A stretch of DNA of 64,000 bases from Candidatus Margulisiibacteriota bacterium (GTDB taxonomy: Bacteria; Margulisbacteria; WOR-1; JAKLHX01; JBAZKV01): assembly GCA_041650635.1 (NCBI GenBank), contig JBAZKV010000004.1:534-64533 (forward strand), in the 5' to 3' direction. The position numbers and the translations under genes were made by a program. Within the stretch, counting starts at the first letter, position 1, and each line of letters begins with the position of its first letter. The notes below the pieces were generated by a model. That model was not told the origin of the DNA, searched no databases, and saw only the letters and a program-made list of their open reading frames with translations. Shown piece by piece: positions 6,571 through 61,964 of the stretch.

Positions 6571-7938
6571 ATGCCCATTTCTGATGACGACACTATCGCC
6601 TCCATTTCATCGGCTCCTTCAAGTGCCGCGATCGGGATAATAAGGATAAGCGGCCCAAGATCATTGTCATTGCTCAAGAGCCTTTGTTCCGCAAAGAAGG
6701 GAAGCTTTATCCCAAATATGATCAAATTTGCACAGGCATCTCACCCAAAGCGCAGCCACCTTATTGATGAAGTAATGGCGGTATACCTAAAAGCGCCGGC
6801 ATCGTTTACGGGGGAAGATATGGCAGAGATATATTGCCACGGCGGCATCGCTGTAATGACCGCTATAATGGACTGTCTGATAGGTTTGGGCGCCAGACAA
6901 GCGGAGAGGGGAGAGTTTTCTAAAAGAGCGTTCTTGAACGGGAAAATTGACCTGATCAAGGCGGAAGCGATAGCGGCAATAATTGGCTCTAGAACACAGG
7001 AGGGAGCGAATGCTGCCGCAAGCCAGTTAGGCGGCATCCTTTCAAAGAAAATCGGCGAGATAACCGGCCGATTAACGGCTATTCTTGCGCTTATCGAGGC
7101 CCATCTTGACTTTCCAGAAGAAATGGGAAAACCCAACATAAGGTCAATAAGAAAAATGATGTCACAGCAAATTAAGGCTCTTGACGAGCTCTTGAATACG
7201 GCCGACCAGGGAAGAATATTAACAGCTGGAGTTGACTGTGTGATAGCCGGAGCGCCGAACGCGGGCAAATCCAGTCTATTGAACGCGCTGCTCAAATTTG
7301 AGAGAGCTATAGTAACAGGCATTCCCGGAACAACGACCGATACCATTGAAGAGGCGATCAATATAAAAGGAATAGCCATTAAATTGATAGACACGGCCGG
7401 GATCAGAAAGGGCAGGGGAGAGGTTGAGGCAAAGGGTATTGTCCGAACAAGGGAGGCCATTGAAAGAGCGGATATTGTTATAGTTGTTGTTGACGGAGCA
7501 AAAGCTCTATCAAAACATGATAAAGATATTCTGCAACAGGCAAAAGAAGCCCGGGGAGCGGCTATTGTAGCCCTTAACAAGAGCGACATCGGCAGGAAGA
7601 TAAACAAGAGAGAACTGAAAGGTTTCGAGACAGTCCATATTTCGGCTCTCACAGGAAAAGGTCTCAAGGCTCTTGAGAAAACACTTCTCAATGTGATAAC
7701 ATCAAAGCGCATCGACCCCAAGGACGCGCTGCTTATAAGCACCAGACAGAAAGGTTCTGCAATGGAGGCAAGAGACGCTTTAAAAAGAGGCTTTTCGGCC
7801 ATTAGCAATGATTTTTGCCCGGAGCTGGCCGGTATCGATGTCAAGGAGGCCATCTCCAGCCTAAGGAACATGACAGGCGAGGGGGTAAGCAGCCAGATAG
7901 CAGAAGAGATCTTTAGCAGGTTTTGTATAGGGAAATAA
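6571..7938 (+). CDS. mnmE: tRNA modification GTPase MnmE (TrmE)
   Basis: A 455-aa protein with G1 (GAPNAGKSSLLNAL) and G3 (DTAG) motifs and the C-terminal CIGK motif that marks MnmE. Confidence 0.95.
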   Translation: MPISDDDTIASISSAPSSAAIGIIRISGPRSLSLLKSLCSAKKGSFIPNMIKFAQASHPKRSHLIDEVMAVYLKAPASFTGEDMAEIYCHGGIAVMTAIMDCLIGLGARQAERGEFSKRAFLNGKIDLIKAEAIAAIIGSRTQEGANAAASQLGGILSKKIGEITGRLTAILALIEAHLDFPEEMGKPNIRSIRKMMSQQIKALDELLNTADQGRILTAGVDCVIAGAPNAGKSSLLNALLKFERAIVTGIPGTTTDTIEEAINIKGIAIKLIDTAGIRKGRGEVEAKGIVRTREAIERADIVIVVVDGAKALSKHDKDILQQAKEARGAAIVALNKSDIGRKINKRELKGFETVHISALTGKGLKALEKTLLNVITSKRIDPKDALLISTRQKGSAMEARDALKRGFSAISNDFCPELAGIDVKEAISSLRNMTGEGVSSQIAEEIFSRFCIGK

Positions 7939-22456: not shown

Positions 22457-23905
22457 ATGAACGACCAAGCCAATGTGATGGGGCAGCCGGTTCCTTTATG
22501 GGAAAAAGAATATGAACTGCCGCTCCACATATACAGCGCCGCGCAAATAAGAAGAAATCTCAAAGCATTCAAGAATATTTTTGCCGATAACTACCCAAAG
22601 GGTCGGGTCTGTTTTGCCGCAAAAGCATGTACACATCAGGAAACCCTGAGAATAGTCAATGAAGAAGGCTGCGGGGCCGATGTGGCCTCCTATAACGAGA
22701 CAAGGTGCGCGCTTGAGGCCGGGATCCCGCCCGAAATGCTGGACCTTAACGGCAACTGCAAGGAAGACTTTCTTATTAAAGATGCAATAAACAGGGGGAT
22801 GAACATCGTTGCCGACAGCCTGGAAGAGTTTGAGAACATCTGTGCAATAGCCAAGACTCTAGGCAAAACGCCCAGAGTCTTGCTCAGGATAAGCGGATAC
22901 GAACTGGACGATATAACAGCGGACAGCTATTTTACTTCCGGTTTGTGGACAAAATTCGGGGTGCCTCTGCGCGATATCCCCGCCTTTATCGGAAGGCTTA
23001 AGAACTATCCTCAGATAGAATTTGCGGGGTTCCACACGCATATAGGCTCCCAGATCGCCCAGTTGGAGCCTTTTTTGGCAGTCCTTGGCAAGATGATAGA
23101 AATGTGCGGACTTATGAACTCGTCCGGCATACAATGTAAAGTCCTTAATCTTGGCGGTGGTTTCCCTGTAAGATATGTTGAAAAAGACACTTGGGATCAT
23201 ATTGTTCAAAGGATACGGAAGGGATATCTGGATGCGGAAGCAGGCGACCCCAAACATGTTTTTGTCTGGCACGACGGGCTCGCGGGGTTTACCACCGAGA
23301 CCAACGCAAAAATACATCTTGAAAAATGGACTGGCGAGCGGTTTTATACTCCTTATCCCAAAGAAAAGATGCTGGAAGCCGTGCTTAAAGGGCAGGTCAA
23401 GGTAAACGGCAAGACAGTAAATGCGGTCAAAGCCCTGCAGGATATCGGAAGCCCGATGCTGACTATTGAGCCGGGCCGAGCCGTTGTTGAAGATGCGGGG
23501 ATCACCCTTGCGAAAGTCAGCATTGTGCGAAAAGTCGCATATGAGCACGATCTGGTGACCATAGAATTAGGCGTTACCAGCCACTGCGAATCTTTGCTTG
23601 AAAAGCCTGTGCGAAAGTGGGAGCTAGCGGATAAGTCCTTTAGCAATGACGATAGGCCTTTTGAGGCCTTTATCGGAGGCAACCTCTGCTTTTCCGGGGA
23701 TATGATCTCAAAATATAAGGTCTTTTTGGAAAGAAAGCCTAAAAGAGGGGATGTTCTCATCATTTATGACACGGGTGCCTATTCTTCTTCTCTTATGTCC
23801 GCCAACAGCAATTCATTCCCGCGGCCCGCGAGGGTGCTTGTTAAAGAGGACGGGACGAAGGTTGTGATGAAGCATAGGGATAAGTTCGAGCAAATCTTTT
23901 CCTGA
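22457..23905 (+). CDS. PLP-dependent decarboxylase of fold-type III (Orn/DAP/Arg decarboxylase family)
   Basis: FAAKAC carries the PLP-lysine context. HTHIGSQ, GGGF and EPGRAVV are present, and CFSGD is the active-site Cys motif. At 482 aa it is longer than a typical LysA, so substrate specificity is not assigned. Confidence 0.8.
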   Translation: MNDQANVMGQPVPLWEKEYELPLHIYSAAQIRRNLKAFKNIFADNYPKGRVCFAAKACTHQETLRIVNEEGCGADVASYNETRCALEAGIPPEMLDLNGNCKEDFLIKDAINRGMNIVADSLEEFENICAIAKTLGKTPRVLLRISGYELDDITADSYFTSGLWTKFGVPLRDIPAFIGRLKNYPQIEFAGFHTHIGSQIAQLEPFLAVLGKMIEMCGLMNSSGIQCKVLNLGGGFPVRYVEKDTWDHIVQRIRKGYLDAEAGDPKHVFVWHDGLAGFTTETNAKIHLEKWTGERFYTPYPKEKMLEAVLKGQVKVNGKTVNAVKALQDIGSPMLTIEPGRAVVEDAGITLAKVSIVRKVAYEHDLVTIELGVTSHCESLLEKPVRKWELADKSFSNDDRPFEAFIGGNLCFSGDMISKYKVFLERKPKRGDVLIIYDTGAYSSSLMSANSNSFPRPARVLVKEDGTKVVMKHRDKFEQIFS

Positions 23906-23908
23906 TAT

Positions 23909-24439
23909 CTACCAATCCAACCCCTCAATCCCTTTTTCCCCCTTGTCGTAATAATGTTTTATTTTCTGCATCCTGGTGATGAGGTCGACTTTTGTTGATA
24001 TTTCCGGGGGCAGGATGCGGCCGGTCAATATTAAATGGGGGACGGCGCGCGATCCCGGTACGGGCACGCGGCCGCGTGCCCCAACCAGATCAATTATATC
24101 CCCCATCGGCAACAACCCGGCCGCAACGGCATCTAATATCTCGTCCAGCACTATCAGAAAATATTTTCCGGAGGCGATCATCTGGTTTGCCATGGCAAGG
24201 CCTTCTTTGGCCTTTTTTATGTGAATATCTTTGGGCGCCCTGTCAAATACAAAGGTTTTGTCGCCGACCAGGCGGATGTCTATATTTGAACCGGACAAAT
24301 ATTTATATTCCCCGGTTTTGTCGCTGCCCTTCAAAAATTGCAGGACCGCGACTTTTTTGCTGTGCCCCGCGGCGCGGAGCGCATGTCCAACCGCCGCAGA
24401 GGTCTTTCCTTCGCCGTCACCTATAAAGGCTAGGATCAT
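23909..24439 (-). CDS. cobO: Cob(I)yrinic acid a,c-diamide / cob(I)alamin adenosyltransferase (CobA/CobO/BtuR family)
   Basis: A 176-aa protein with a P-loop-like GDGEGKTSAAVGHALRAAGHSKKVAVLQFLKG, collinear with BtuR/CobO. Confidence 0.8.
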   Translation of the reverse strand: MILAFIGDGEGKTSAAVGHALRAAGHSKKVAVLQFLKGSDKTGEYKYLSGSNIDIRLVGDKTFVFDRAPKDIHIKKAKEGLAMANQMIASGKYFLIVLDEILDAVAAGLLPMGDIIDLVGARGRVPVPGSRAVPHLILTGRILPPEISTKVDLITRMQKIKHYYDKGEKGIEGLDW

Positions 24440-24442
24440 CTA

Positions 24443-26770
24443 TTACCAGCATTTAGAATAGCCGCAGGCCCTGCAGATTATACAGCCTTCGCTGAATTCG
24501 ACCATGTTGCCGCATTCGGGGCACTCGGGACACATGCCCGGGTTCTTGTCCCTGCCGTCGTTTATCGGCATTGCGGCTCCGGCGTAAGCAATTGGCTCAG
24601 TCTCTAACGCAGCTGTTGCCACAACCGGGTCTACCAAAAGGGCGGGCTCGGATTCGGAAGCATCGCAGTGCTTGCCGTTGCCGTTGTGAAGGTATTTTTC
24701 TATCGTCTTTCCTATGGCATCAGGGCAGGACAAAACCATGCCGCCGTTAACCCATAGGGGTGACGGACAGCGGATCCCTTTTATCTGTTTTACAATTGCC
24801 TCCCGCTCTATCCCGCACCTGAGGCAAAGTGAAATAAGCCGGCTGATAGCTTCGGACTGGGAGGCCGCACAGCCGCCGGATTTGCCCATCTTTGCAAAGA
24901 TCTCGCAGAGCCCGGCCCCGTCCTCATTGACGGTTATATAAAGATTTCCGCAGCCGGTGCCGACCCGGATAGTTTTTCCTATGGTTTCGTTGGGCCGCTC
25001 GCGGGGAATGATCCCGTCCATTTTCTTTTCTTTGATCTTGGCGCTTTCAATGTTCAGGACCTGGGCTTCCCTGCTCTTGTCGCGGTATATGGTGATCCCT
25101 TTGCAGCCCTCCTTATAGGAGAACAGGTAGGAGTTCTTGACATCGTCCACTGTTGCCGACTGGCAAAAATTGACGGTTTTGGACACGGCGTTATCTACAT
25201 ATTTTTGGAATGCCGCCTGCATGCGGATGTGCCATTCCGCAGAAATGTCGTGGGCGGTGACAAAGACCCTTTTAACATCGTCAGGCACCTCGTCAATGTC
25301 GTGTACGCCGCCTTTTTCGGCGATCTTTTTCATCAATTCTTCACTGTAAAATCCTCTTTCTATCGCAACTTTTTTGAAGTGCGGATTTACTTCTACCATT
25401 TCCGTGTTGTCCATGACCCTTCTTATGTAGGAAATAGCGAACAAGGGCTCTACTCCCGAAGAACAGTTGGCAATAATGCTTATGGTGCCGGCAGGGGCAA
25501 TTGTTGTTGTGGTGGCATTCCTGTATTTGGGGCCGTTCTGTATATCGTAAATGCTGCCCTTGAAGTTGGCGAACACGCCCCTTTCTTCGGCAAGTTTTGA
25601 TGACACCTTTTTGCTTTCTTCCTGTATGAACTTCATCACTTTCTCGCCGATAGCCACCGCTTTTTTGGTGTTGTAAGGGATCTTGAGCATAATTAGCATG
25701 TCGGCAAAGCCCATCACGCCCAGACCGATCTTTCGGTTGGACTTTGTGGTTTCTTCGATCTTTTTAAGCGGATATTTGTTCATTTCTATCACATTGTCAA
25801 GAAAGCGGGTCGCAAGATGGATGGTCCTTCTCAGCTTGTCCCAGTCTATATCCGCATGGCCGGCTTCATGAAAGCGCACCATTTTGCTAAGGTTGATGGA
25901 GCCCAAATTGCAGGATTCATAAGAAAGCAAGGGCTGCTCCCCGCAAGGATTCGTGGCCTCTATCTCTCCGACCAATGGGGTCGGGTTGAAAGCGTTAAGA
26001 CGGTCTATAAAGACTATGCCGGGGTCCCCGTTCTTCCAGGCCATTTCTGTTATAAGGTCGAACACCTCTCTTGCGCTGAGCTGCTTCACTTTTTCTTTTG
26101 TTCTGGGGTTGATAAGGTCATACATCCTGCCGTCCTCTACCGCGTCCATGAACTCGTCAGTTACGGCGACTGAGATATTGAAGTTGTTTATTTTGCTGTT
26201 GTCCCTTTTGCAGGTTATAAAATCAAGGATGTCGGGATGGTCGACCCTCAAAATACCCATGTTTGCGCCCCTGCGGGTCCCTCCCTGTTTTACGGCTTCG
26301 GTCGCGGCGTCAAAAACGGTCATAAAGGACACAGGGCCGGAAGAGATCCCCTTTGTGGTCATCACCATATCGTCTTTTGGCCTGAGGCTGGAAAAAGAAA
26401 AGCCTGTGCCGCCGCCGCTCTTGTGTATAAGGGCCGTCTCTTTTACTGTTTCAAAGATGTCTTCAAGCGAGTCCTTTATTGGGAGAACAAAACAGGCGGA
26501 GAGCTGCTGGAGCTCCCTGCCGGCGTTCATGAGCGTCGGGGAGTTCGGTAAAAACTCAAGGGCGGTCATCATCCTGAAGAATTCCTCTTCGTACCTTTTG
26601 GCTTCGATGGAGGAGGAGAACTTTGCCTCCGCGGAAGAAATATTTTCCGCAACCCTCTTGAAAAGATCTCCCGGTTTTTCCACGATATTGCCCTTTTTAT
26701 CGCGCTTAAGATACCTTTTTTCCAGCACCTTTATCGAATTTTCGGACAGGTTCAGCTCTTCTTTTGGCAT
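24443..26770 (-). CDS. nrdJ: Adenosylcobalamin-dependent (class II) ribonucleotide reductase, long form with a C-terminal Cys-rich zinc-finger tail
   Basis: A 775-aa protein. The N-terminus is LSENSIKVLEKRYLKRDKKGNIVE. It has a conserved class II core and a C-terminal CPECPECGNMVEFSEGCIICRACGYSKC. Confidence 0.93.
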   Translation of the reverse strand: MPKEELNLSENSIKVLEKRYLKRDKKGNIVEKPGDLFKRVAENISSAEAKFSSSIEAKRYEEEFFRMMTALEFLPNSPTLMNAGRELQQLSACFVLPIKDSLEDIFETVKETALIHKSGGGTGFSFSSLRPKDDMVMTTKGISSGPVSFMTVFDAATEAVKQGGTRRGANMGILRVDHPDILDFITCKRDNSKINNFNISVAVTDEFMDAVEDGRMYDLINPRTKEKVKQLSAREVFDLITEMAWKNGDPGIVFIDRLNAFNPTPLVGEIEATNPCGEQPLLSYESCNLGSINLSKMVRFHEAGHADIDWDKLRRTIHLATRFLDNVIEMNKYPLKKIEETTKSNRKIGLGVMGFADMLIMLKIPYNTKKAVAIGEKVMKFIQEESKKVSSKLAEERGVFANFKGSIYDIQNGPKYRNATTTTIAPAGTISIIANCSSGVEPLFAISYIRRVMDNTEMVEVNPHFKKVAIERGFYSEELMKKIAEKGGVHDIDEVPDDVKRVFVTAHDISAEWHIRMQAAFQKYVDNAVSKTVNFCQSATVDDVKNSYLFSYKEGCKGITIYRDKSREAQVLNIESAKIKEKKMDGIIPRERPNETIGKTIRVGTGCGNLYITVNEDGAGLCEIFAKMGKSGGCAASQSEAISRLISLCLRCGIEREAIVKQIKGIRCPSPLWVNGGMVLSCPDAIGKTIEKYLHNGNGKHCDASESEPALLVDPVVATAALETEPIAYAGAAMPINDGRDKNPGMCPECPECGNMVEFSEGCIICRACGYSKCW

Positions 26771-26796
26771 TGCAGCCTTCCTCCTTTATTTGGGGA

Positions 26797-27243
26797 TCAA
26801 GACAGTGTTTTTATCTCTTTAACAAAATCCGAGACGCTTTCGAACTGGCGGTAGACCGAGGCAAATCTGACATAAGCCACTTTGTCAAGCTTTTGAAGTT
26901 TGTCCATCACTATCCCGCCTATGTTGACCGTTGACACTTCTCTTCCGTATTCCGAATACAGATACTTCTCGACCTCGTCCGCGATCTGTTCCACATCTTC
27001 CATTCTTACGGGCCTTTTTTCGCAGGCTTTCAAGATCCCGGAGGCCAGCTTTTCTCTGTCATAGGGCTGGCGGGTCCCATCCTTTTTCATTACATAAAGA
27101 GGCCTTTCTTCCACTCTTTCGTAGGATGTGAATCTGGCCCTGCAGGACAGGCATTCTCTTCTTCTTCTGACCGAGGAGCCCTCGCCTATGGTCCTTGATT
27201 CAATTACTTTATCTTCATCTTTTCCGCAGGCGGGGCATTTCAT
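26797..27243 (-). CDS. nrdR: Transcriptional repressor NrdR
   Basis: A 148-aa protein with a zinc ribbon (MKCPACGKDEDKVIESR...CLSCRARF) and an ATP-cone. Confidence 0.95.
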   Translation of the reverse strand: MKCPACGKDEDKVIESRTIGEGSSVRRRRECLSCRARFTSYERVEERPLYVMKKDGTRQPYDREKLASGILKACEKRPVRMEDVEQIADEVEKYLYSEYGREVSTVNIGGIVMDKLQKLDKVAYVRFASVYRQFESVSDFVKEIKTLS

Positions 27244-27291
27244 CCTTTAACCTCCCAAAACCCTTTATTTAGCGCGGAATTGAAGTATATC

Positions 27292-27311
27292 ACACCACAT
27301 ATGTGGGGTGT
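27292..27311. promoter_or_regulatory. Candidate NrdR box upstream of nrdR
   Basis: ACACCACATATGTGGGGTGT contains the perfect palindrome CCACATATGTGG flanked by ACAC/GTGT-like arms. It resembles the NrdR-box consensus acaCwAtATaTwGtgt. Confidence 0.5.
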
Positions 27312-27343
27312 CAATAGGGGTTTTTACAACTTGAAAAAGCCTG

Positions 27344-29116
27344 TCAGGCGCAGCAATAACCGGCGGCAGATCCTCCGGAAAAGTCGCTCTCAACCACAAC
27401 TCTTCCAGTGTCTTCCGGCTTAATACAGAGCTCCTTTTCCTTTTTGCATCCGCTTCTAAAAACGGTAATGCCCTTGCATTTCAATTTGTGGGAAAGCAAA
27501 AAAATGTCCCGTACATCTTCTTTTGTCGCGCCAGGTAAAAGGTTGACCGTCTTTGACACTCCGCCGTCGGTGTATTTTTGGAAGGCTGCTGCCATGCTCA
27601 CATGCCAGTGCGCCGGGATATCGAGACCCCTTGCGAAGAGAGCTTTGATATTGTCAGACATACCCTCAAGGCAGGAAACGCTTCCTTCGTTCAAGAGTAT
27701 GGACTTGATGGTGTCGCTGCTCCAAAATCCGCCCTTTTTTGCGGCCTGTTCGAACATGGTATTATGCTCGGTCACTTCTTCTTTACCTCCCAATTGCCTT
27801 GCCCAGGCCACGGCAAAGATGGGCTCTATTCCGCTGGAGCACCCCGCGATGATGCTGAGCGCCCCGGTTGGCGCAACAGTGGCGACAGAAGCGTTGCGCA
27901 GCGCCTTGAATTTGTTCCTGTATATGCTTTCCTTGAATGCGGGGAATGAGCCCCTGATCTTTCCTAGTTCTTCGGAAGCGGAACGGCCTTCTTCCTGGAC
28001 GAACTTCATTATCTTTTCGGCAAGAGCGACCGCTTTCTGTGAAGAATAGGGGAGCCCCAGTTTTATCAGCAGGTCGGCAAACCCCATTATCCCCAGGCCT
28101 ATCTTTCTAGAGGCTTTTGTCGCTTCTTCTATTTGGGGCAGGGGATATTTTGAGGCATCAATGAGGTCATCGAGGAATCTTACCGCCAGATGAACGGTGT
28201 CCCCGAGTTTTTTGAAATCAACGCCGTCCCCTTTGGCAAACTCGCAGATAGCTATCGAGCCAAGAACACAGGCCTCGTAAGGAAGCAGGGGCTGTTCGCC
28301 GCATGGATTGGTGGCTTCTATCCTCCCCAGTTTAGGCAGAGGATTGTCCCGGTTTATCCTGTCGGCAAAAAGCACCCCCGGGTCGCCGCTTTCCCAGGCA
28401 TTTTCTACCAGCTTAAGGAACAGTTCGTGAGCGTCCTTTCTTGCGCAGGGCTTTTTTGTCCTCGGGTCAATTACCGGATAGCTGCCGCCCTTTTTAAGGG
28501 AAGCCATGAACTTGTCGCTTATGAGCACCGACAGATTAAAGTTGGTCAAAGAGGCGCGGCCTTTTTTGGCCTCGATAAATTCAATGATGTCCGGATGGTC
28601 GAATGGAAGAATGCCCATATTAGCGCCTCTGCGCCTGCCGCCCTGCCTAACGGTGTCTGCGGCGGCATCAAAAAGCCGCATAAAGGATACCGGGCCCGAG
28701 GACACCCCGTGAGTGCGTTTTACTATATCGCCTTTTTTCCTGAGCCCGCCGAAGTTGAAGCCCGTGCCTCCCCCGCTCTGGTGTATCAGCGCGGCGCTCC
28801 TTAGGCAGTCAAATATCGAGGAGAGGCTATCTTCTACGGGAAGGACAAAACAAGCCATCAGCTGTCCAATGTCCGTGCCGGCATTCATAAGAGCAGGAGA
28901 ATTGGGCAGGAACAGCCCGTCGCACATAAGTTCGGCAAAGCGGCGCTCGAGCTGTTTTCGTTGTAAGGCCTGGCAGTAGAGGGCTTCGGCTCCCGCAGCC
29001 GCTTTAGCCGCTCTTTGGAACAACTGCTGAGGGGTTTCGCACACTTTCCCGTTCTTATCCCTGAGGAGATATCTGTTCTTCAGCAGCGCTTCGGCGCTTT
29101 TGGATAGTTTCTTCAT
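27344..29116 (-). CDS. nrdJ: Second class II ribonucleotide reductase paralog, shorter and lacking the zinc-finger tail
   Basis: A 590-aa protein. Its N-terminus (LLKNRYLLRDKNGKVCETPQQLFQRAAKA) is collinear with the 775-aa paralog through the catalytic core. It ends ...GYCCA. Confidence 0.88.
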   Translation of the reverse strand: MKKLSKSAEALLKNRYLLRDKNGKVCETPQQLFQRAAKAAAGAEALYCQALQRKQLERRFAELMCDGLFLPNSPALMNAGTDIGQLMACFVLPVEDSLSSIFDCLRSAALIHQSGGGTGFNFGGLRKKGDIVKRTHGVSSGPVSFMRLFDAAADTVRQGGRRRGANMGILPFDHPDIIEFIEAKKGRASLTNFNLSVLISDKFMASLKKGGSYPVIDPRTKKPCARKDAHELFLKLVENAWESGDPGVLFADRINRDNPLPKLGRIEATNPCGEQPLLPYEACVLGSIAICEFAKGDGVDFKKLGDTVHLAVRFLDDLIDASKYPLPQIEEATKASRKIGLGIMGFADLLIKLGLPYSSQKAVALAEKIMKFVQEEGRSASEELGKIRGSFPAFKESIYRNKFKALRNASVATVAPTGALSIIAGCSSGIEPIFAVAWARQLGGKEEVTEHNTMFEQAAKKGGFWSSDTIKSILLNEGSVSCLEGMSDNIKALFARGLDIPAHWHVSMAAAFQKYTDGGVSKTVNLLPGATKEDVRDIFLLSHKLKCKGITVFRSGCKKEKELCIKPEDTGRVVVESDFSGGSAAGYCCA

Positions 29117-29156
29117 GCCGAAAGTTGATGGGATTGTAGCACAAAGAGGCCGAAAA

Positions 29157-29399
29157 TTACAAGGAAAGATCGCCGGACAGCGCCTGCGCTATCTTTGTCC
29201 TGTCAAAGCCCAGGATCAATTTTCCGTCTATATCTATGACCGGGACCCCTGTCTGTCCCGTCATCTCTATAAGGCGCTTTGCGGCAGTGTTGTCCTCAAG
29301 AACATTGAATTCCTCAAAATCCAGCCCTTTTTCATTAAAGAACCGTTTTGCCTGCTGGCAGAACGGGCACAGGGGGGAAGAATATATGCGGATCGGCAC
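29157..29399 (-). CDS. Glutaredoxin (CPFC active site)
   Basis: An 80-aa protein with SSPLCPFCQQAKRFF...GVPVIDIDGKLILGFD. It starts with GTG at 29397-29399. Confidence 0.85.
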   Translation of the reverse strand: MPIRIYSSPLCPFCQQAKRFFNEKGLDFEEFNVLEDNTAAKRLIEMTGQTGVPVIDIDGKLILGFDRTKIAQALSGDLSL

Positions 29400-29569
29400 T
29401 ATTCTTTTATGATGGCATTCACCGGGCAGGCCTCAACGCACTTTCCGCAGTCGGTGCACTTGGCCGGGTCTATAGTATAAATAGGGTCACCGGAAGCGAT
29501 CGCCTGTACGGGGCACTCCGGCTCGCAGCTTCCGCAGGCTATGCAGGAATCCTGTATTTTGTGTGACAT
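29399..29569 (-). CDS. 2x[4Fe-4S] ferredoxin
   Basis: Read from the sequence: MSHKIQDSCIACGSCEPECPVQAIASGDPIYTIDPAKCTDCGKCVEACPVNAIIKE, two CxxCxxCxxxCP motifs in 56 aa. It is below the 60-aa cutoff of the ORF track. Confidence 0.75.
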   Translation of the reverse strand: MSHKIQDSCIACGSCEPECPVQAIASGDPIYTIDPAKCTDCGKCVEACPVNAIIKE

Positions 29570-29644
29570 GATAATACCTCCCTAAAATTTCAACAAAGAC
29601 CATTCTACACCATGGGTGATTTTCTGACAATAGGGGCAGGCGCC

Positions 29645-30112
29645 TTATAAATGATCCAGATGTTTAATGATATCGTCCGCGTAGCTTTCAAGTTTTTCGG
29701 CCAGCCTTTGCGAAAGCCCGCCGCCAAAGGACACATCCTCAACCTGTATGCCTGCCGCAATGATCTCCGTTTTAAGCTCAAGGCTTTTTGACAGGGCCAG
29801 TAGCTGGCCAAGGTCTATCTGGTGGGTAGAAGACAGGTCCTCTTTGATGTTTTGCGCTTCTATTTCTTTGAGCCCGAAGATCTTCAACTGTCCCGGGCGC
29901 AGGCCAGCATTGATGCCGTCAATGATAAGGGCTCTTTTATATCCTGACAGCCTGTTTATAAGGTCTATAGCGGAGGTCCCCAGGTCAAAATAATCGAATC
30001 TGCCGTCATCGCGCTTGCGCAGCCTATCAAGTACGGCTATCCCGATGCCGTCGTCTTTTCTCAACGGGTTGCCTATGCCTATTACGGCGGTCCGGTCAGA
30101 TGAATTTGACAT
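29645..30112 (-). CDS. [NiFe] hydrogenase maturation endopeptidase (HycI/HybD family)
   Basis: GIGNPLRKDDGIGIAVLDRL is the family signature. The start was set to the internal Met (MSNSSDRTAVIGIGN). It still overlaps the 3' end of the large-subunit gene by a few codons. Confidence 0.82.
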   Translation of the reverse strand: MSNSSDRTAVIGIGNPLRKDDGIGIAVLDRLRKRDDGRFDYFDLGTSAIDLINRLSGYKRALIIDGINAGLRPGQLKIFGLKEIEAQNIKEDLSSTHQIDLGQLLALSKSLELKTEIIAAGIQVEDVSFGGGLSQRLAEKLESYADDIIKHLDHL

Positions 30113-31490
30113 CGAGCATGTGGGTGGAGCAGGAGATGCAGGGGTCATATGCTCTGGCAAGCATTTCCAGGTTTAATGTAATGTCTTCTGTAGAGACGCC
30201 CTGCAGGACGTTTCTACCTGCCACGCCCGCACCATTAATTAATTCCGGCACCAATTTTCTCATATCTTCCTCAAGATTAGCCATGTTCTGGTTGGTTGGT
30301 ATCACGCAATTTGCGGCTGTAATCAGCCCTTTTTCATCTATCGTGTATTCATGGAACAGGGTGCCTCTGGGGACCTCGGCGCAGCCAACGCCAGTATTGG
30401 GCCTGTAGGAAGGGGTCTGATCCTTCTTTGGCCAAGAGCTTACGATAGATTTGGACTCATCAAGTCCTTCGCTAAGGACTTTTTTAAGTATCTTGATAGA
30501 TTCCTCAAGACAGTGCACCCATTCAACCAGCTGAGCGGCCGTGTTCAAATACGGATTGCTGCAGGGGGCCTTTAATCCGAGTTCTTTGGCTGTATCCTTG
30601 CCCCTTTTATTCAACTGGGCAAAATTGTTGTTAAACCTTGAAAGAGCTCCGACCGCATAAGGTTTGCCTCCTATGTGGGCGACCTTTGCCCTTGAATAAT
30701 CAAGCACTGTTTCACTCAAAAGGGCCCTGTAGTCTTTGTCCGTGGCCTTGCGTTGCCCGTTAACTGCAAGAGAGCCTTCGTATAGCGCGTATTCCTTATC
30801 AGCTTTAAGCGAAAGATACTGTGTCGGCCTCTCATATTCGGGGAACTCAAGGGTCTTGAACACCTTTAAGGTTTCCTCGGCGTCGCCGCGGGCTTCCAGC
30901 ATCATAGAATACAACTTCTCAAGATTCTCCCTGGAAGGGAGCTTGGTAAGGCCGCCTATCACATAAGTAATGGGGTGAATGTGTCTTCCCGCCAGGACCT
31001 CGCCGGCAAAATCGCTCATTTTTTTCATGCGGAGAGCGCGCTCTATCATGGACTTGTGCGTCTTGATAAGAGGGAAAATGCTTTTGACTCCCAGAAGGTC
31101 GGGGGCAACAAGGATGTAGATATGAAGGATATGGCTGTCCAGTATTTCTGTGTTAAGGAGCAGCTTTCTGAGCATTACGGTCTGGGCTGAAGGGACTATT
31201 CCCAGGACATCTTCTCCTGCCTTAACAGAGGCCAAGGTGTGTCCGCAGGCGCATATGCCGCAGATCCTGCTGGTAATATGCTGGGCTTCCCAGATAGAGC
31301 GCCCTACAAGCATGGACTCAAAGAATCTGGGGGATTCTATGACCTGGAATTGGCATTTTTCCAAAGCGCCGTTCTTAACATCCACGACTATGCTGCCATG
31401 GCCCTCCACCCTTGTAAGGTAGTGGACATCTATCTTAACGTTCTTTGCGCTATTTGAACTCGTTGTCATATTTTGCTCCGGTGGAGTCAT
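30096..31490 (-). CDS. hydA: [NiFe] hydrogenase large (alpha) subunit, cytoplasmic group 3 type
   Basis: The N-terminal Ni-binding motif RICGICACGH and the C-terminal DPCISCSTHMLDVKFI (DPCxxCxxH) are present. Length is 464 aa. Confidence 0.92.
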   Translation of the reverse strand: MTPPEQNMTTSSNSAKNVKIDVHYLTRVEGHGSIVVDVKNGALEKCQFQVIESPRFFESMLVGRSIWEAQHITSRICGICACGHTLASVKAGEDVLGIVPSAQTVMLRKLLLNTEILDSHILHIYILVAPDLLGVKSIFPLIKTHKSMIERALRMKKMSDFAGEVLAGRHIHPITYVIGGLTKLPSRENLEKLYSMMLEARGDAEETLKVFKTLEFPEYERPTQYLSLKADKEYALYEGSLAVNGQRKATDKDYRALLSETVLDYSRAKVAHIGGKPYAVGALSRFNNNFAQLNKRGKDTAKELGLKAPCSNPYLNTAAQLVEWVHCLEESIKILKKVLSEGLDESKSIVSSWPKKDQTPSYRPNTGVGCAEVPRGTLFHEYTIDEKGLITAANCVIPTNQNMANLEEDMRKLVPELINGAGVAGRNVLQGVSTEDITLNLEMLARAYDPCISCSTHMLDVKFI

Positions 31491-32217
31491 TATAAAGCGT
31501 GAACTTATTAAGTATGTCTTCTACTGTAAGGCCGTATTTGAGTAAAATGTCCTTCTGGGCCGAGGATGCAGGGTCGCTCAGGAGCCCCCTGCAGCCGTAG
31601 CACTTGTTGCCATTGTTTATGCACCAGGAATTGCAGCCCGCCCTGGTGACCGGGCCCAGACAATCTTCCCCCTTTTCGTAGCGGCAGACATTCTCGTTCA
31701 TTTTACACTCAATGCAAACCGGATGATCGGGAACAGCATAGGGCTTTCCCAGCAGGATGCACTTGATAACGGAGATCACTTCCGGAACATAGACCGGACA
31801 GCCGTTAATGAAGTAATCAACAGACACCACCTCGTGGACAGGCATGGTCTTTACAGTGTTGACCCCTCCTGCCTTGTCCCCGTATACCGTTCTTTTTGCT
31901 TCTTCAAGCGGTTTTCTGTTCTTCATCCCGTTTATGCCGCCTATAGTGGCGCAGGCACCCAGGGCAACGACCACCTTGGCTTTTTCCCTAATGGTTTTTA
32001 TCCTTTTTATGTCGTTCTCTGTGGTAATACTGCCTTCTACAAAGGCAATGTCATAATCCTGGCCGTTCTCCGACATGATCTCCCTGAAGTTAACGATATC
32101 CACCAGTTCCAAAAGCTCCAAAAGGGTAGAGCCTATATTGGCGAACTGCAGCTGGCAGCCCTCGCAGTCCGAAAAATCAAAGAACGCCAGTTTCGGTTTT
32201 CTTTCAGGCTTTTTCAA
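31450..32217 (-). CDS. hydD: [NiFe] hydrogenase small (delta) subunit
   Basis: A 255-aa protein with an N-terminal FDFSDCEGCQLQF proximal-cluster motif and further Cys clusters (CIECKMNENVC, CLGPVTRAGCNSWC). Confidence 0.85.
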   Translation of the reverse strand: MKKPERKPKLAFFDFSDCEGCQLQFANIGSTLLELLELVDIVNFREIMSENGQDYDIAFVEGSITTENDIKRIKTIREKAKVVVALGACATIGGINGMKNRKPLEEAKRTVYGDKAGGVNTVKTMPVHEVVSVDYFINGCPVYVPEVISVIKCILLGKPYAVPDHPVCIECKMNENVCRYEKGEDCLGPVTRAGCNSWCINNGNKCYGCRGLLSDPASSAQKDILLKYGLTVEDILNKFTLYNDSTGAKYDNEFK

Positions 32218-33067
32218 GGCATTCCCCCTTAAATTGCTTTATCTGCTCATAGGTAAAAACCGGTCCGCTCTGGCACACATAAGTTCCTTCTATCTGGCAG
32301 TGGCCGCACTTACCGAGCCCGCATTTCATCCTGCGCTCAAGAGAGACCAGTATCTGGTGGTCCGGTATCTTTTTCTCCAAAAGATGCACTATCACAAATT
32401 TATACATTACCGGAGGGCCTACTACCACTCCGTAAGTTCTTTCGGGAATGATATCCACTCCCGGTATCAGGGTCGTTATCAGCCCTACATTGCCTGCCCA
32501 TTCATCGTCAGGTTTGTCCACGGTGCAGCTGAACTTTATCTCGGACCTTTTCATCCACTCGCTGGTCTCCCTGCCAAAAAGGATCTCTTTAGGGGTTTTG
32601 CATCCCAGAAGTATCTGCACATTTCCAAACTCATTCCTCTGGGCAGTGACATATCTGATAAGGGATCTCAAGGGAACAAGCCCAAGCCCGCCCCCTATGA
32701 TCAAAAGATCAAAGCCCGACATGCTGTCCACGGGGAATCCTTTGCCGTAAGGGCCCCGTATCCCCACCAGATCGCCTTTTTCGAGCCTGTGAAGCTGCCT
32801 GGTGAGCGAACCCACTGCACGGACCGTCAGCTCAAAATAACCTTTGTCGGTAGGGGATGAGCAAACAGAAATAGGAGCTTCTCCAAAACCGAAGACCGAG
32901 ACCATTACGAACTGGCCCGGCATATGTCCAAGCTCCCTTTTTCCTTCCAACTCTATGCGGAAAAGTTTTTCCTGCTCTCCCTCCATCCGGGTTTCAACGA
33001 TCTTTCCCTTCATCTGGCCATAGGGAAAGGAGCCCATTTTTTCTAAAAGCTCTTTTCTGTCCATCAC
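32204..33067 (-). CDS. hydG: Hydrogenase gamma subunit, an FAD/NAD(P)-binding oxidoreductase with a C-terminal 2Fe-2S cluster
   Basis: It has a PyrK/sulfhydrogenase-gamma-like fold. The C-terminal cluster motif is CGLGKCGHCQ. Confidence 0.82.
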   Translation of the reverse strand: MMDRKELLEKMGSFPYGQMKGKIVETRMEGEQEKLFRIELEGKRELGHMPGQFVMVSVFGFGEAPISVCSSPTDKGYFELTVRAVGSLTRQLHRLEKGDLVGIRGPYGKGFPVDSMSGFDLLIIGGGLGLVPLRSLIRYVTAQRNEFGNVQILLGCKTPKEILFGRETSEWMKRSEIKFSCTVDKPDDEWAGNVGLITTLIPGVDIIPERTYGVVVGPPVMYKFVIVHLLEKKIPDHQILVSLERRMKCGLGKCGHCQIEGTYVCQSGPVFTYEQIKQFKGECLEKA

Positions 33068-34095
33068 GCAACCTCTTTCAGCAGCGCGTTCACGGTCTCT
33101 TTAAGGTCGATACCGGCCATGCAGGCCCTGGTGCATCTTCCGCAGCCCGTGCAGAAATACCTGTTGAATTTGTCCGCAGGGTATTTAAATTTTCTATAAT
33201 ATCTGTGTCTTTGCCTTAAGTCGCGGCCTTTTCTAAAATCATGGCCCCCGGCGACTTTTGCAAAATCCTCCATTTGGCAGGAATCCCAGATCCTGTACCT
33301 TGTGCCGCTGCCAAGGTCAAGCGACAATTCGTCCTCGACATTAAAGCAGTAGCAGGTAGGGCAGACCGAAGTGCAATTGCCGCAGCCCACGCATCTTCTC
33401 CCAGTATCCTCCCATACCTTGGCGTTAAAACCTTTATCAAAGGCCTCATACACTTTGGAGACGGGAGCGTCCAATTCCTCTTTGAAGACCCGGTTCTTTT
33501 CTTCTCTGGCGCTGTCCAGCGCTTTCATGTTTGAGCTATCTGCCTTCTTGATATAGGAGAGTCCTTTTATAAGAGCTTCCCCCTTTTCGGAATTAACATG
33601 GATAATGTAGCTGTCCCCTATATCAGTAAGCATCAGATCGTAACCGCCCCTTGGCAGATGATTGCCCATAGAGGCGCATGAGGCGTGGCTGTCGCAGTAT
33701 TTCATGCACTCGAAGCCTATGATGGTCATCCTGTCTTTTCTGCTAAGGTAATACGGGTCGGCCGGCTGCTCCCTAAAAACGGCATCCATGCACTGTATGC
33801 CGGCTATGTCGCAGGTGTGTACCGCGAAAAGGATGAACTCTTCGGGTTCCTTGAGGTCCCTTTCTTCCTTAAGGGTCTTTGTGTCGAACTTTGCCAGCTT
33901 CTCTTTCTGCGGAAAATAATACTTTTTTGGCGGAAGGATCGTAGGGATATAGTCCAGGCAGATCTCGCTCACATCCTTTATGGGTCTGAAAACATAGAGA
34001 TTTTCTTTCTTTTTGGGGGCATAAAAGCGGGCCTTTTTCTGAAGGTGGCGGATCCATTTTTCAAGGTCCGTTTTTTTGACCAACGCGTATTTCAT
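33064..34095 (-). CDS. hydB: Hydrogenase beta subunit (Fe-S protein)
   Basis: A 343-aa protein with several Cys clusters (CVGCGNCTSVCPTCYC, CTGCGRCTRAC). It is the first gene of the hydBGDA order typical of group 3b sulfhydrogenase-like enzymes. Confidence 0.82.
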   Translation of the reverse strand: MKYALVKKTDLEKWIRHLQKKARFYAPKKKENLYVFRPIKDVSEICLDYIPTILPPKKYYFPQKEKLAKFDTKTLKEERDLKEPEEFILFAVHTCDIAGIQCMDAVFREQPADPYYLSRKDRMTIIGFECMKYCDSHASCASMGNHLPRGGYDLMLTDIGDSYIIHVNSEKGEALIKGLSYIKKADSSNMKALDSAREEKNRVFKEELDAPVSKVYEAFDKGFNAKVWEDTGRRCVGCGNCTSVCPTCYCFNVEDELSLDLGSGTRYRIWDSCQMEDFAKVAGGHDFRKGRDLRQRHRYYRKFKYPADKFNRYFCTGCGRCTRACMAGIDLKETVNALLKEVA

Positions 34096-34334
34096 GCGTA
34101 TTCCAGTTCGGTTATCTCAAATTCAGGGCCATAGGGGACTTCTTTAAAATCTATCTCTATGTCTTTGCCTCCCGAATTTAGGGCGGCCTGCTCAAAATGG
34201 GACAAAAAGTGTTCCCTGCTCAAGCCGGAAAATCTGGAAAGGTTAACGGATATCTTTCTGATCTTCTTGTCCGAAGCTTTTTCTTCTTCCTCAAGGTACC
34301 TTATCAAATTTTGGAACAAGTGCGCCTCGTGCAT
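34092..34334 (-). CDS. HypA-like nickel metallochaperone N-terminal domain, lacking the C-terminal zinc finger
   Basis: An 80-aa protein beginning MHE (the N-terminal Ni-binding motif of HypA). It is collinear with HypA residues 1-75, but the ORF ends before any CxxC...CxxC zinc-ribbon sequence. Confidence 0.5.
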   Translation of the reverse strand: MHEAHLFQNLIRYLEEEEKASDKKIRKISVNLSRFSGLSREHFLSHFEQAALNSGGKDIEIDFKEVPYGPEFEITELEYA

Positions 34335-39199: not shown

Positions 39200-39709
39200 A
39201 TGTACGCGGTAAACAGGCTTACTCAAGATTTTCTGGATAAACACCCAAAACTGTACAGCATGTTCGGTTCCTGTTATTTTATGCTTTGCGGCACCACTCC
39301 CCACTCTTATGATCTCTTCCGCAGAACGATTTTCTATGGCGAAAAAGAGACTGCCGCATTTGCAGCTGCTGACACAGACACAAGAAGAATAACGGCCATC
39401 ATAGTGTTCAACCAATTCGGCAAAGAAAATGACTCCATCTTTATGCACATCATTCCAGTTGAGGGGGCGCCTTTGGACGCTAACGGGATGTCGGAAGTCT
39501 TGAAGCAGATAATTAGTGAAGCGGTAAAGAAATTCGATCTTAATCGCATCTACTCGAATGTGATGGATGTCGAGGATTTTGCGAAAAAGGCGCTTGAAAA
39601 AACGGGGTTTTGCATTGAGGCCGAAATGAAGGAACAGATATTCTTTAAAGGGCAGCTCAGGTCCGTGCTTGTATATGTTTTTTCCCCAAAAGGGCAGGAC
39701 AATGCTTGA
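39200..39709 (+). CDS. GNAT-family N-acetyltransferase, putative
   Basis: The C-terminal region LNRIYSNVMDVEDFAKKALEKTGFCIEAEMKEQIFFKGQ fits the GNAT beta4-alpha3 acetyl-CoA motif region. The start was set to the Met at 39200. Confidence 0.5.
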   Translation: MYAVNRLTQDFLDKHPKLYSMFGSCYFMLCGTTPHSYDLFRRTIFYGEKETAAFAAADTDTRRITAIIVFNQFGKENDSIFMHIIPVEGAPLDANGMSEVLKQIISEAVKKFDLNRIYSNVMDVEDFAKKALEKTGFCIEAEMKEQIFFKGQLRSVLVYVFSPKGQDNA

Positions 39710-40259
39710 AAAGATCAAAATTGCCTTGAGAAAGGCCGATCTCGGCGATGTGGAAAGGATCTGCGGCTGGGCATCGTCGCAGGATTTTGTGGCAAACTTA
39801 TATGACCTTGAGACTAAAGACCCGAAAAAGCTCAAAGCCAGGGTGATAGCCATGGTGGAAAAAAGCACAAGCGATCCTTCGGACGCTATCGTTATGATAG
39901 CCGAAACACCGGAAAAGCCGGTCGGGATGATACTGTATTCCAGGATAAACTGGAGAAGCCGGAACCTGCATGAGTCTACGGTCATTGGAGAAGAGGATTA
40001 TAAGAACAAGATATATGGGCTCAAATTCATCCATTTAATGCTGGATTTTGCGTTCAATGAACTGGGGATGCACAAGATATCGGGGTATGTGTATGATTTT
40101 AATGCCAGAATGAGCGCTCTATTGGAGGGTTTTGGCGCGATCAAAGAAGGATATTTTAAGGATTTTGTGAAAAGAGGGGAGAAAAGGTACGGAGCCACCC
40201 TATACGCGTTTTTTGACCGAGACTATCCAAGATTTCTCAAGGCCATTTCAAAATACTGA
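39702..40259 (+). CDS. GNAT-family N-acetyltransferase, putative
   Basis: GMHKISGYVYDFNARMSALLEGFGAIKEGYFKDF is GNAT-like. The start ATG overlaps the stop of the previous GNAT gene within ATGCTTGA. Confidence 0.5.
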   Translation: MLEKIKIALRKADLGDVERICGWASSQDFVANLYDLETKDPKKLKARVIAMVEKSTSDPSDAIVMIAETPEKPVGMILYSRINWRSRNLHESTVIGEEDYKNKIYGLKFIHLMLDFAFNELGMHKISGYVYDFNARMSALLEGFGAIKEGYFKDFVKRGEKRYGATLYAFFDRDYPRFLKAISKY

Positions 40260-61893: not shown

Positions 61894-61964
61894 CTGGGGG
61901 ACCTGGATTTGAACCAGGACTGTCGCCTCCAAAGGGCGATGGCCTACCGTTAGCCGATCCCCCA
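61894..61964 (-). tRNA. tRNA-Gln (anticodon UUG)
   Basis: The minus-strand sequence folds as a cloverleaf: acceptor TGGGGGA/TCCCCCA, D-arm GGCT-AACGGTA-GGCC, anticodon arm TCGCC-CTTTGGA-GGCGA, T-arm CCTGG-TTCAAAT-CCAGG, discriminator G. It resembles E. coli tRNA-Gln (UGGGG...CCCCAG). No CCA is encoded. Confidence 0.85.

Follow-up and report, generated by a model that had tools for sequence, protein, structure and literature searches.

Two questions are described as open in the ribonucleotide reductase (RNR) literature: what favours the retention of two oxygen-independent class II enzymes in many genomes, and what reduces the NrdJ enzymes that bear a cysteine-rich domain (CRD). A locus that bears on both lies within 64,000 nucleotides of DNA from a Candidatus Margulisiibacteriota bacterium (contig JBAZKV010000004.1, positions 534 to 64,533; this whole stretch is called the window below). 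Six open reading frames (ORFs) run head to tail at 23909-29569: a ferredoxin gene (fd), a glutaredoxin-like gene (grx), a short nrdJ, nrdR, a long nrdJ and cobO. Coordinates are positions in the window, and all six genes, like the promoters and boxes described with them, are on the minus strand. Overall, the locus is probably best explained as a deoxyribonucleotide-synthesis cluster of the Margulisbacteria/Saganbacteria group that consists of two adjacent units on one strand. Its two reductases appear to differ in their re-reduction module and in their regulation, with only the CRD enzyme lying behind a predicted NrdR operator. The cluster also encodes candidate redox partners, namely the ferredoxin and a redoxin with a CPFC active site, and a predicted cofactor-repair enzyme. 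What is new is the conserved arrangement, in which a CRD-less NrdJ with tail cysteines and candidate redox partners stands directly upstream of a predicted NrdR-controlled CRD NrdJ and cobO.

Genes were identified by profile scores against family cut-offs (Pfam, TIGRFAM and NCBIfam), and by these scores all parts of the cluster fall in known families. The first gene, fd (29399-29569), encodes a 56-amino acid 2[4Fe-4S] clostridial-type ferredoxin with two CxxCxxCxxxCP motifs (NF058577, 80.1 bits against a cut-off of 65). It is followed by grx (29157-29399), encoding an 80-amino acid glutaredoxin-like redoxin with a CPFC active site (PF00462, 1.3e-18), and by the short nrdJ (27344-29116), whose product is a class II RNR of 590 amino acids without a TSCPD domain. 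Downstream of these lie nrdR (26797-27243; 148 amino acids; TIGR00244, 198 bits against a cut-off of 125) and the long nrdJ (24443-26770), encoding a 775-amino acid class II RNR with a TSCPD domain (NF006417, 1223 bits against a cut-off of 961). The last gene, cobO (23909-24439; 176 amino acids; PF02572, 4.8e-43), encodes a cobO/cobA-type ATP:cob(I)alamin adenosyltransferase, and a convergent decarboxylase gene ending at 23905 sets the downstream limit of the cluster. The stop codon of fd and the GTG start of grx have a single base in common, within TAGTG. The gap from nrdR to the long nrdJ is 26 bp and contains AAGGAGGAAG, and that from the long nrdJ stop to the cobO start is 3 bp. This six-gene order had been given by the original prediction, which was also correct on both NrdJ C-termini, the TAGTG overlap and a 20-mer at 27292-27311. 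When the window and four related loci were searched against Rfam, no match fell within or close to the cluster, and a cobalamin riboswitch was not found.

Both reductases look active, and both are predicted to be dimeric-type, adenosylcobalamin-dependent enzymes. Against the dimeric NrdJ model TIGR02504 (cut-off 400), the long form scored 756 bits and the short form 635 bits, and against the monomeric RTPR model (cut-off 340) they scored only 86 and 62 bits, respectively. The comparison with monomeric and dimeric class II enzymes that had been proposed for the two sequences therefore places both far above the dimeric and far below the monomeric cut-off. The short NrdJ aligns to the T. maritima NrdJ 1XJE at 1e-117 and keeps C89 (the first redox Cys, in ACFV), N270, C272 and E274 (the NPCGE thiyl-radical motif) and C283 (the second redox Cys). 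The long NrdJ keeps the same catalytic set as C93, N274/C276/E278 and C287, and these catalytic Cys, Asn and Glu residues are kept in all orthologues compared. A dead copy, which the original prediction would have recognized by inactivating substitutions of the catalytic Cys or the B12-binding residues, was not seen at the level of the catalytic residues, which are intact in both enzymes. In a pairwise comparison of the window with locus L010, whose short-gene orthologue is 94% identical, the ratio of nonsynonymous to synonymous substitution rates (dN/dS) was 0.072 for the short nrdJ, 0.054 for the long nrdJ, 0.020 for nrdR, 0.036 for fd and 0.123 for grx. The short NrdJ is under purifying selection. 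This low ratio and the overall conservation bear indirectly on the predicted dependence on adenosylcobalamin and on its contact residues.

The substrate loop reads PNSP in both enzymes (FLPNSPA in the short form, with PNSP at residues 71-74, and FLPNSPT in the long form). A P-N-S-P apical loop marks diphosphate reducers, and 1108 of about 24,000 representative genomes carry more than one NrdJ, with 235 of these 1108 being diphosphate-only (Schell et al., PMC8365446). Both enzymes are accordingly predicted to reduce diphosphates, which would place the PNSP/PNSP pair of the window in this minority class. Since both are predicted diphosphate reducers, the published explanation of paired NrdJ enzymes by phosphate specificity would not apply here.

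The two enzymes had been described as duplicated paralogues that differ mainly at the C-terminus. The C-terminus is indeed where their domain content differs, but their sequences differ throughout, with 49% identity over 570 residues. The word duplicated also proved misleading. A database search with the short NrdJ returned a clade of proteins of 575-590 amino acids, followed by more than 100 mostly archaeal clusters at 52-57% identity, all of them nearer than the neighbouring long NrdJ. In a neighbour-joining tree of the catalytic core, the short clade stood beside archaeal sequences and the long forms elsewhere. These archaeal short-tail NrdJ sequences (metagenomic, some of them named Bathyarchaeia, Nitrososphaerales and Micrarchaeota) are likewise CRD-less, show a core identity of 53-56%, end in ...SEYAGGCPTPYC and have in common with the short clade the tail motif SE[FY]xGGCPxxYC, a CX4C pair. 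One archaeal locus was examined (L024), and it has no fd, grx or nrdR nearby. A separate origin of the short NrdJ, rather than a recent duplication of the long one, is likely but not proven, because neighbour-joining on fast-evolving sequences is not decisive. Between the same pairs of lineages, the long forms are 78-93% identical and the short forms 58-80%, indicating that the short NrdJ evolves markedly faster.

The C-termini point to two different modes of re-reduction. The long NrdJ carries a TSCPD (IscU-like) domain (PF12637, 8.8e-21) and a C-terminal zinc-finger cysteine array, CPECG...C..C..C....C, and ends in ...MCPECPECGNMVEFSEGCIICRACGYSKCW. The terminal cysteines of this array align with those of enzymes from Thermoplasmata, Clostridia and Shapirobacteria. 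With a CRD taken as a domain of about 150-220 amino acids with six conserved terminal cysteines, the long NrdJ has one and the short NrdJ does not. The short NrdJ instead ends in GGSAAGYCCA, with a vicinal pair, C588-C589. Most short orthologues have CX4C and one (P0002) has three tail cysteines; in the sub-clade of the window, unlike the archaeal tails, the first Cys is replaced by Ser and a second Cys has been gained beside the last (S…YCC). In class II tails without a zinc finger, Cys pairs are spaced by zero to more than four residues (Burnim et al., PMC9669993), so the CC tail falls within known variation. In class I RNRs and in the monomeric class II enzymes, it is a Cys pair of the tail that reduces the active site (PMC5704485). 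The CC tail of the short NrdJ is a candidate redox-active pair.

We recovered related loci (labelled L) by exact-match look-ups of ten short-form proteins; when the representative genomes of GTDB were scanned with the short NrdJ, no close relative was found, and L004 was added to the set. The order fd-[grx]-nrdJ(short)-nrdR-nrdJ(long)-cobO is kept, as far as the contigs reach, in ten lineages (the window, L010, L011, L013, L016 and L019-L023). The source names on two of the short-form proteins are Candidatus Margulisiibacteriota and Candidatus Saganbacteria, both sister groups of Cyanobacteria. Each of the eight lineages with a locus that reaches far enough (the window, L004, L013, L016 and L019-L022) has cobO next after the long nrdJ, fd lies directly upstream of the RNR cluster in 11 of the 11 lineages examined, and grx is present in six of the ten lineages with a short nrdJ. 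The gene upstream of fd varies, being that of a hydrogenase protease, enolase or a proton pyrophosphatase (H+-PPase), and this difference between lineages suggests that fd moves together with the RNR genes, independently of the hydrogenase. In L004, whose long NrdJ is 81% identical to that of the window, the order is enolase, H+-PPase, fd, a strong terminator, nrdR, nrdJ(long) and cobO, without short nrdJ and grx. The fd ORF of L004 (in the region 7218-7440) also has no start codon: owing to a 2-nt gap it reads ATGGCATAAAATT where orthologues have ATG-xxx-CATAAAATT, which, at a coverage of 3.6x for this contig, could reflect either faulty assembly or a true pseudogene. As a separate observation, the metagenome assembly of the window holds a second, Margulisbacteria-type copy of the whole cluster (L014; ENA ERZ27247363 k141_2115805), whose short NrdJ is 62% identical to that of the window.

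The downstream half of the cluster carries the features of a unit under NrdR control. The encoded NrdR has a zinc ribbon (PF22811, 5.7e-19) with C3, C6, C31 and C34 present, and an ATP-cone (PF03477, 4.5e-24). Upstream of nrdR lies a predicted promoter (27284-27314) with a -35 element, TTGACA (27314-27309), a 19-nt spacer and an extended -10 element, TGATATACT (27292-27284); TTGACA and TATACT are invariant across 11 lineages (the window, L004 and nine other related loci). Two predicted NrdR boxes overlap this promoter. Box 1 (CCCACATATGTGGTGT, 27292-27307) lies in the spacer between -35 and -10, and box 2 (GCGCTAAATAAAGGGT, 27260-27275), which follows it after a linker of 16 bp, covers the site where transcription is expected to start. 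The original prediction had named a single NrdR box, the 20-mer at 27292-27311 (plus strand ACACCACATATGTGGGGTGT). The site before nrdR is real, but the 20-mer is made up of the 16-bp box 1 and four bases of the -35 element, and box 2 had been missed.

We evaluated this operator by a weighted score for pairs of 16-mers (maximum 44) and by conservation across lineages. The pair at 27307-27260 scored 31 of 44 and was among the top three of 255,808 window positions, where shuffled sequences gave 0.15 such matches, and the same pair with its 16-nt linker was the single best match in all ten related loci (4-18 kb each). The core of box 2, CTAAATAAAG, fits the published pattern C.[AT].[AT][AT].[AT].G, and the positions invariant in an alignment of nine lineages are c2, C4, w5, A6, A8, T9, G13 and g15. 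In box 1, the invariant positions on the consensus are A6, A8, T11, G13, g15 and t16. Box 2 has C4 and G13 at a distance of 8 bp, and box 1 has G13 with its conserved C 9 bp off. An alternative register, in which box 1 is a perfect palindrome (CACATATGTG) with a 17-bp linker, was rejected, as position 13 is then A in L010, L016, L020 and L021; the register with a 16-bp linker was preferred because every invariant column then falls on a consensus position. Pairs matching the loose published pattern were likewise dropped: 246 pairs in the window agreed with it at 11 or more of the 12 positions, but so did about 197 in shuffled sequence, and the pattern thus does not discriminate. Upstream of fd and the short nrdJ, the best pairs reached 23 and 20 of 44, which is the background level. 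The suggestion that the short NrdJ escapes NrdR control fits this result. The autoregulation proposed for nrdR and the long nrdJ also agrees with what we found, a compact unit behind the predicted operator. With the predicted operator at the promoter and gaps of only 26 and 3 bp within the unit, repression of nrdR-nrdJ(long)-cobO by NrdR is the best-supported reading.

The upstream half has a predicted promoter of its own. This sigma-70-type promoter of fd (29602-29630) consists of TTGTCA, 17 nt and TAGAAT, with 10 of 12 matches to the consensus. TTGxxx-17-TAxAAT equivalents precede fd in L013, L016, L019, L020 and L022, and by consensus matches a promoter stands before fd in every lineage examined. 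Between the short nrdJ and nrdR of the window, we found no stable hairpin or terminator (z = +1.2). In L010 and L011, as in the window, the stop codon of fd overlaps the start codon of grx.

The redoxin encoded by grx is closest to the YruB model (TIGR02196), at 84.5 bits just below the cut-off of 88.55. The hallmarks of NrdH are the C[VM]QC and WSGFRP motifs. The redoxin, which has CPFC at its active site and no WSGFRP motif and reached 45 bits against a cut-off of 86 for TIGR02194, is not an NrdH. Its best solved relatives are 7C10/7C12 (deposited as glutaredoxin; 7C10, 7e-13) and 3ZIT/3ZIJ (deposited as thioredoxin; 3ZIT, 4e-10), and it resembles 7C10 and 3ZIT in its length of about 80 amino acids and its CxxC active site. 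Both of these solved proteins are from Firmicutes and receive their electrons from thioredoxin reductase, not from glutathione. The Grx of L013 had been called at 56 amino acids, and a selenocysteine explanation of this was discarded: its start had been miscalled, and the gene is full length, with a TTG start and a CPFC site. CobO matches PF02572 over its full length (residues 1-176) and has a P-loop-like GDGEGKTS. Its scores fall short of the NCBIfam equivalog cut-offs (116 for a cut-off of 168 and 132 for one of 185), so its membership holds at the family level only.

From these sequence features, we infer the transcription units, the repression by NrdR, the electron path from the redoxin to the tail and the role of the ferredoxin. 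Unit 1 would comprise fd, grx and the short nrdJ, expressed from the sigma-70-type promoter upstream of fd. Unit 2 would comprise nrdR, the long nrdJ and cobO, expressed from the TTGACA/TGnTATACT promoter with its two NrdR boxes. NrdR loaded with dATP and ATP would sit on both boxes and shut off nrdR, the long reductase and the adenosyltransferase. Transcripts started at the fd promoter could run on into unit 2, since there is no terminator between the two, and NrdR would then act as a roadblock. Re-reduction of the active-site disulfide would proceed differently in the two NrdJ enzymes. The long one would use its CRD, with the IscU-like fold and the zinc finger, and the short form a flexible tail with a Cys pair, ancestrally CX4C and Cys588-Cys589 in the lineage of the window. 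Where grx is present, the adjacent CPFC redoxin would most likely serve this tail, and CobO would re-adenosylate the cofactor.

Several observations weigh against this model. With respect to the short NrdJ, two orthologues have only one tail cysteine each (P0004 and P0013), and two others deviate in the substrate loop (PNSS in P0002 and PNAP in L021), although N-S-P is described as fully conserved in diphosphate reducers. Moreover, the short nrdJ has no Shine-Dalgarno sequence in the clade of the window. With respect to the redox partners, four lineages that have retained the short NrdJ (L016, L020, L021 and L023) have no grx; a strong terminator follows fd in L016 (z = -3.1, before the short nrdJ) and L004 (z = -4.0); and fd persists in L004 without a short NrdJ. 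A search of all 64 kb of the window, made with regular expressions only, turned up no motif of a thioredoxin reductase or of a ferredoxin:disulfide reductase. The same approach detected no CA[TV]CD flavoprotein and no thioredoxin motif in the window, and no CPC...CPC...C[HLY]C motif in any window ORF or in the cluster of any related locus. With respect to the operator, box 1 has A and not C at canonical position 4, its invariant C being one base out, which gives C-N9-G. In addition, the NrdR of the whole clade has Glu15 (V[IL]ESR; codon 15 at 27199-27201) with Arg17, where the S. coelicolor protein has Asp15 and Arg17, and Asp15 of the S. coelicolor NrdR is reported to contact C4 and G13 (PMC13584703). 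C4 and G13 are critical, but a distance of 9 bp instead of 8 bp is tolerated in one box, though not in both (Shahid et al., PMC13584703), and the two boxes of the window show just this arrangement. Glu15 in the NrdR of this clade co-occurs with the C-N9-G spacing of box 1.

Several readings compete for what the ferredoxin does. It may, at less than an even chance, be a specific low-potential donor for the chemistry of the cluster, with CobO-bound cob(II)alamin as the most natural acceptor, on the model of flavodoxin and CobA in Salmonella. About as likely is that it is the main housekeeping ferredoxin of the cell, whose place reflects inherited gene order and no specific functional link. A strong promoter before fd in every lineage, a terminator behind it in two of them and the generic 56-amino acid clostridial-type sequence of its product are all in keeping with a housekeeping role, as is a hydrogenase that could use this ferredoxin just upstream in the window, L010, L011, L016, L020 and L023. 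Shared ancestry could also explain the position of fd, since all lineages with the arrangement belong to one clade. On the other hand, this position has been kept through at least three upstream rearrangements (hydrogenase, enolase and H+-PPase) and despite the loss of the short nrdJ in L004, and the translational overlap of fd and grx in the clade of the window argues for co-expression.

The original prediction had assigned the ferredoxin and the redoxin to the short NrdJ as a dedicated electron chain, running from ferredoxin through a disulfide reductase and the redoxin to the tail cysteines, and this is the weakest point of that prediction. The constant place of fd immediately before [grx]-nrdJs in ten lineages, regardless of the upstream gene, speaks for such a chain, as do the overlap of the two genes and the finding that no Fd or Grx gene adjoins NrdJ in the seven out-of-clade loci examined (L002, L003, L005-L008 and L024). 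In M. barkeri, a chain of ferredoxin, ferredoxin:disulfide reductase and NrdH reportedly leads to RNR, which would likewise join a ferredoxin and a small glutaredoxin-like redoxin to an anaerobic-compatible RNR. The M. barkeri enzyme is said to be class III, however, whereas that of the window is class II, and the redoxin of the window is CPFC/YruB-like and not NrdH. A gene for the required reductase was not found in the cluster or the window, where the same regular expressions gave neither a CPC...CPC...CHC protein like ferredoxin:thioredoxin reductase nor a CA[TV]CD flavoprotein. The terminators after fd in L016 and L004, and the presence of fd beside nrdR-nrdJ(long)-cobO in L004 without short nrdJ or grx, also argue against a dedicated chain, as does the absence of grx from four of the ten lineages, owing to which the pairing of grx and short NrdJ cannot be obligatory. 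We therefore consider a dedicated chain unlikely, and the description of the ferredoxin as dedicated was not borne out: fd is preceded by a separate promoter, is followed by a terminator in two lineages and occurs in L004 without these partners.

A further reading makes the ferredoxin the physiological donor of the CRD-bearing NrdJ, with an Fe-S cluster in the TSCPD part taking its electrons and reducing the terminal Cys pair. It was suggested by the presence of fd in all 11 lineages, including L004 without the short reductase, and the TSCPD part has four near-invariant cysteines (GCG, GGC, RCP and SCPD). We regard this route as improbable. The CRD enzyme studied by Loderer et al. was not reduced by thioredoxin or glutaredoxin (PMC5704485), and a route from ferredoxin to the CRD, if true, would explain this failure with the Stackebrandtia enzyme.

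The predicted operator might also belong to another regulator, or be a chance inverted repeat in the promoter spacer. Box 1 without the canonical C4, the hundreds of window sites that match the loose pattern and the equally high-scoring boxes inside an unrelated ORF at 40006-40117 would be compatible with this. Nevertheless, the pair lies directly upstream of nrdR-nrdJ, where an NrdR operator is expected; its two boxes stand 16 bp apart; no other site scores higher in any of the ten orthologous loci; and its conservation peaks exactly at the NrdR consensus positions. Taken together, these features make an unrelated origin of the site very improbable and favour an NrdR operator. The boxes at 40006-40117 (plus strand) are three to four NrdR-box-like 16-mers with an exact 32-bp period (ACAAGATATATGGGCT, ATGCTGGATTTTGCGT, GCACAAGATATCGGGG and ATGCCAGAATGAGCGC). 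They gave the top score of the window scan, but we rejected them as an operator: they lie within a 196-amino acid ORF (39669-40259) with no RNR gene nearby and are probably due to chance.

Decay of the short nrdJ, or a loss of catalysis by its product, is hardly credible: its faster evolution in every lineage pair, variable tail cysteines, PNSS and PNAP loop variants, missing Shine-Dalgarno sequence in the clade of the window and loss in L004 would fit decay, but the ORFs are full length (575-590 amino acids) in more than 15 protein clusters, C89, N270, C272, E274 and C283 are kept, and its dN/dS is as low as that of the long form.

The leader of the short nrdJ has a feature of its own. Just upstream of the gene lies an extended -10-like motif, TGCTACAAT (29133-29141), with no Shine-Dalgarno sequence after it. 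The motif TGTGCTACAAT(C/T)CCATCAA is kept only in the window (29117-29156, minus strand), L010 (1762-1801) and L011 (1384-1438), and in the remaining lineages a Shine-Dalgarno sequence occupies the equivalent position before the short nrdJ. The sub-clade without this sequence is the same one that shows the fastest evolution of the short NrdJ and the CC tail.

Among known systems, the downstream unit is most readily compared with the nrdRJ operon of Streptomyces, operons of this kind being the classic case of NrdR control, in which nrdR likewise stands immediately before a CRD NrdJ, two 16-bp boxes lie 15-16 bp apart and the repressor has a zinc ribbon and an ATP-cone (PMC13584703, PMC9110341). 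In contrast to nrdRJ, the operon of the window adds cobO and has a second, CRD-less NrdJ with fd and grx just upstream; it also differs in the C-N9-G of box 1 and in Glu15 for Asp15 of NrdR. With its 9 bp from C to G, box 1 is a case conserved in nature of the spacing whose tolerance in one box of a pair was recently shown in vitro (PMC13584703). Genomes with two dimeric-type NrdJ enzymes of which only one has a CRD have been described in some Frankia and some Alphaproteobacteria (Loderer et al., PMC5704485). CRD and CRD-less enzymes coexist likewise in the window, but here the two genes are adjacent and flank nrdR, and the CRD-less NrdJ falls in a distinct clade of archaeal affinity, with a Cys pair of its own in the tail. 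The six-gene set overturns nothing in this picture, but it offers a convenient test bed for the reductant specificity of class II RNRs.

Some further features of the window and the related loci lie beside these findings. A conserved spacer of about 160 nt separates nrdR from the long nrdJ in L013 (10345-10505), L019 (8336-8497) and L022 (7356-7516), against 26 bp in the window; it contains a promoter-like motif, TGGTAAAAT, and a conserved GCCAGTCT...CTTCT block, and has no Rfam match. Upstream of fd in the window, at 29645-34100 on the minus strand, lie the genes of a four-subunit NiFe hydrogenase (Fe-S, FAD/NAD, small and large subunits) and of a HycI-type maturation protease, a layout that we take to be like that of group 3b enzymes. 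A tRNA gene at 61894-61964 (minus strand) is the sole Rfam match in the window.

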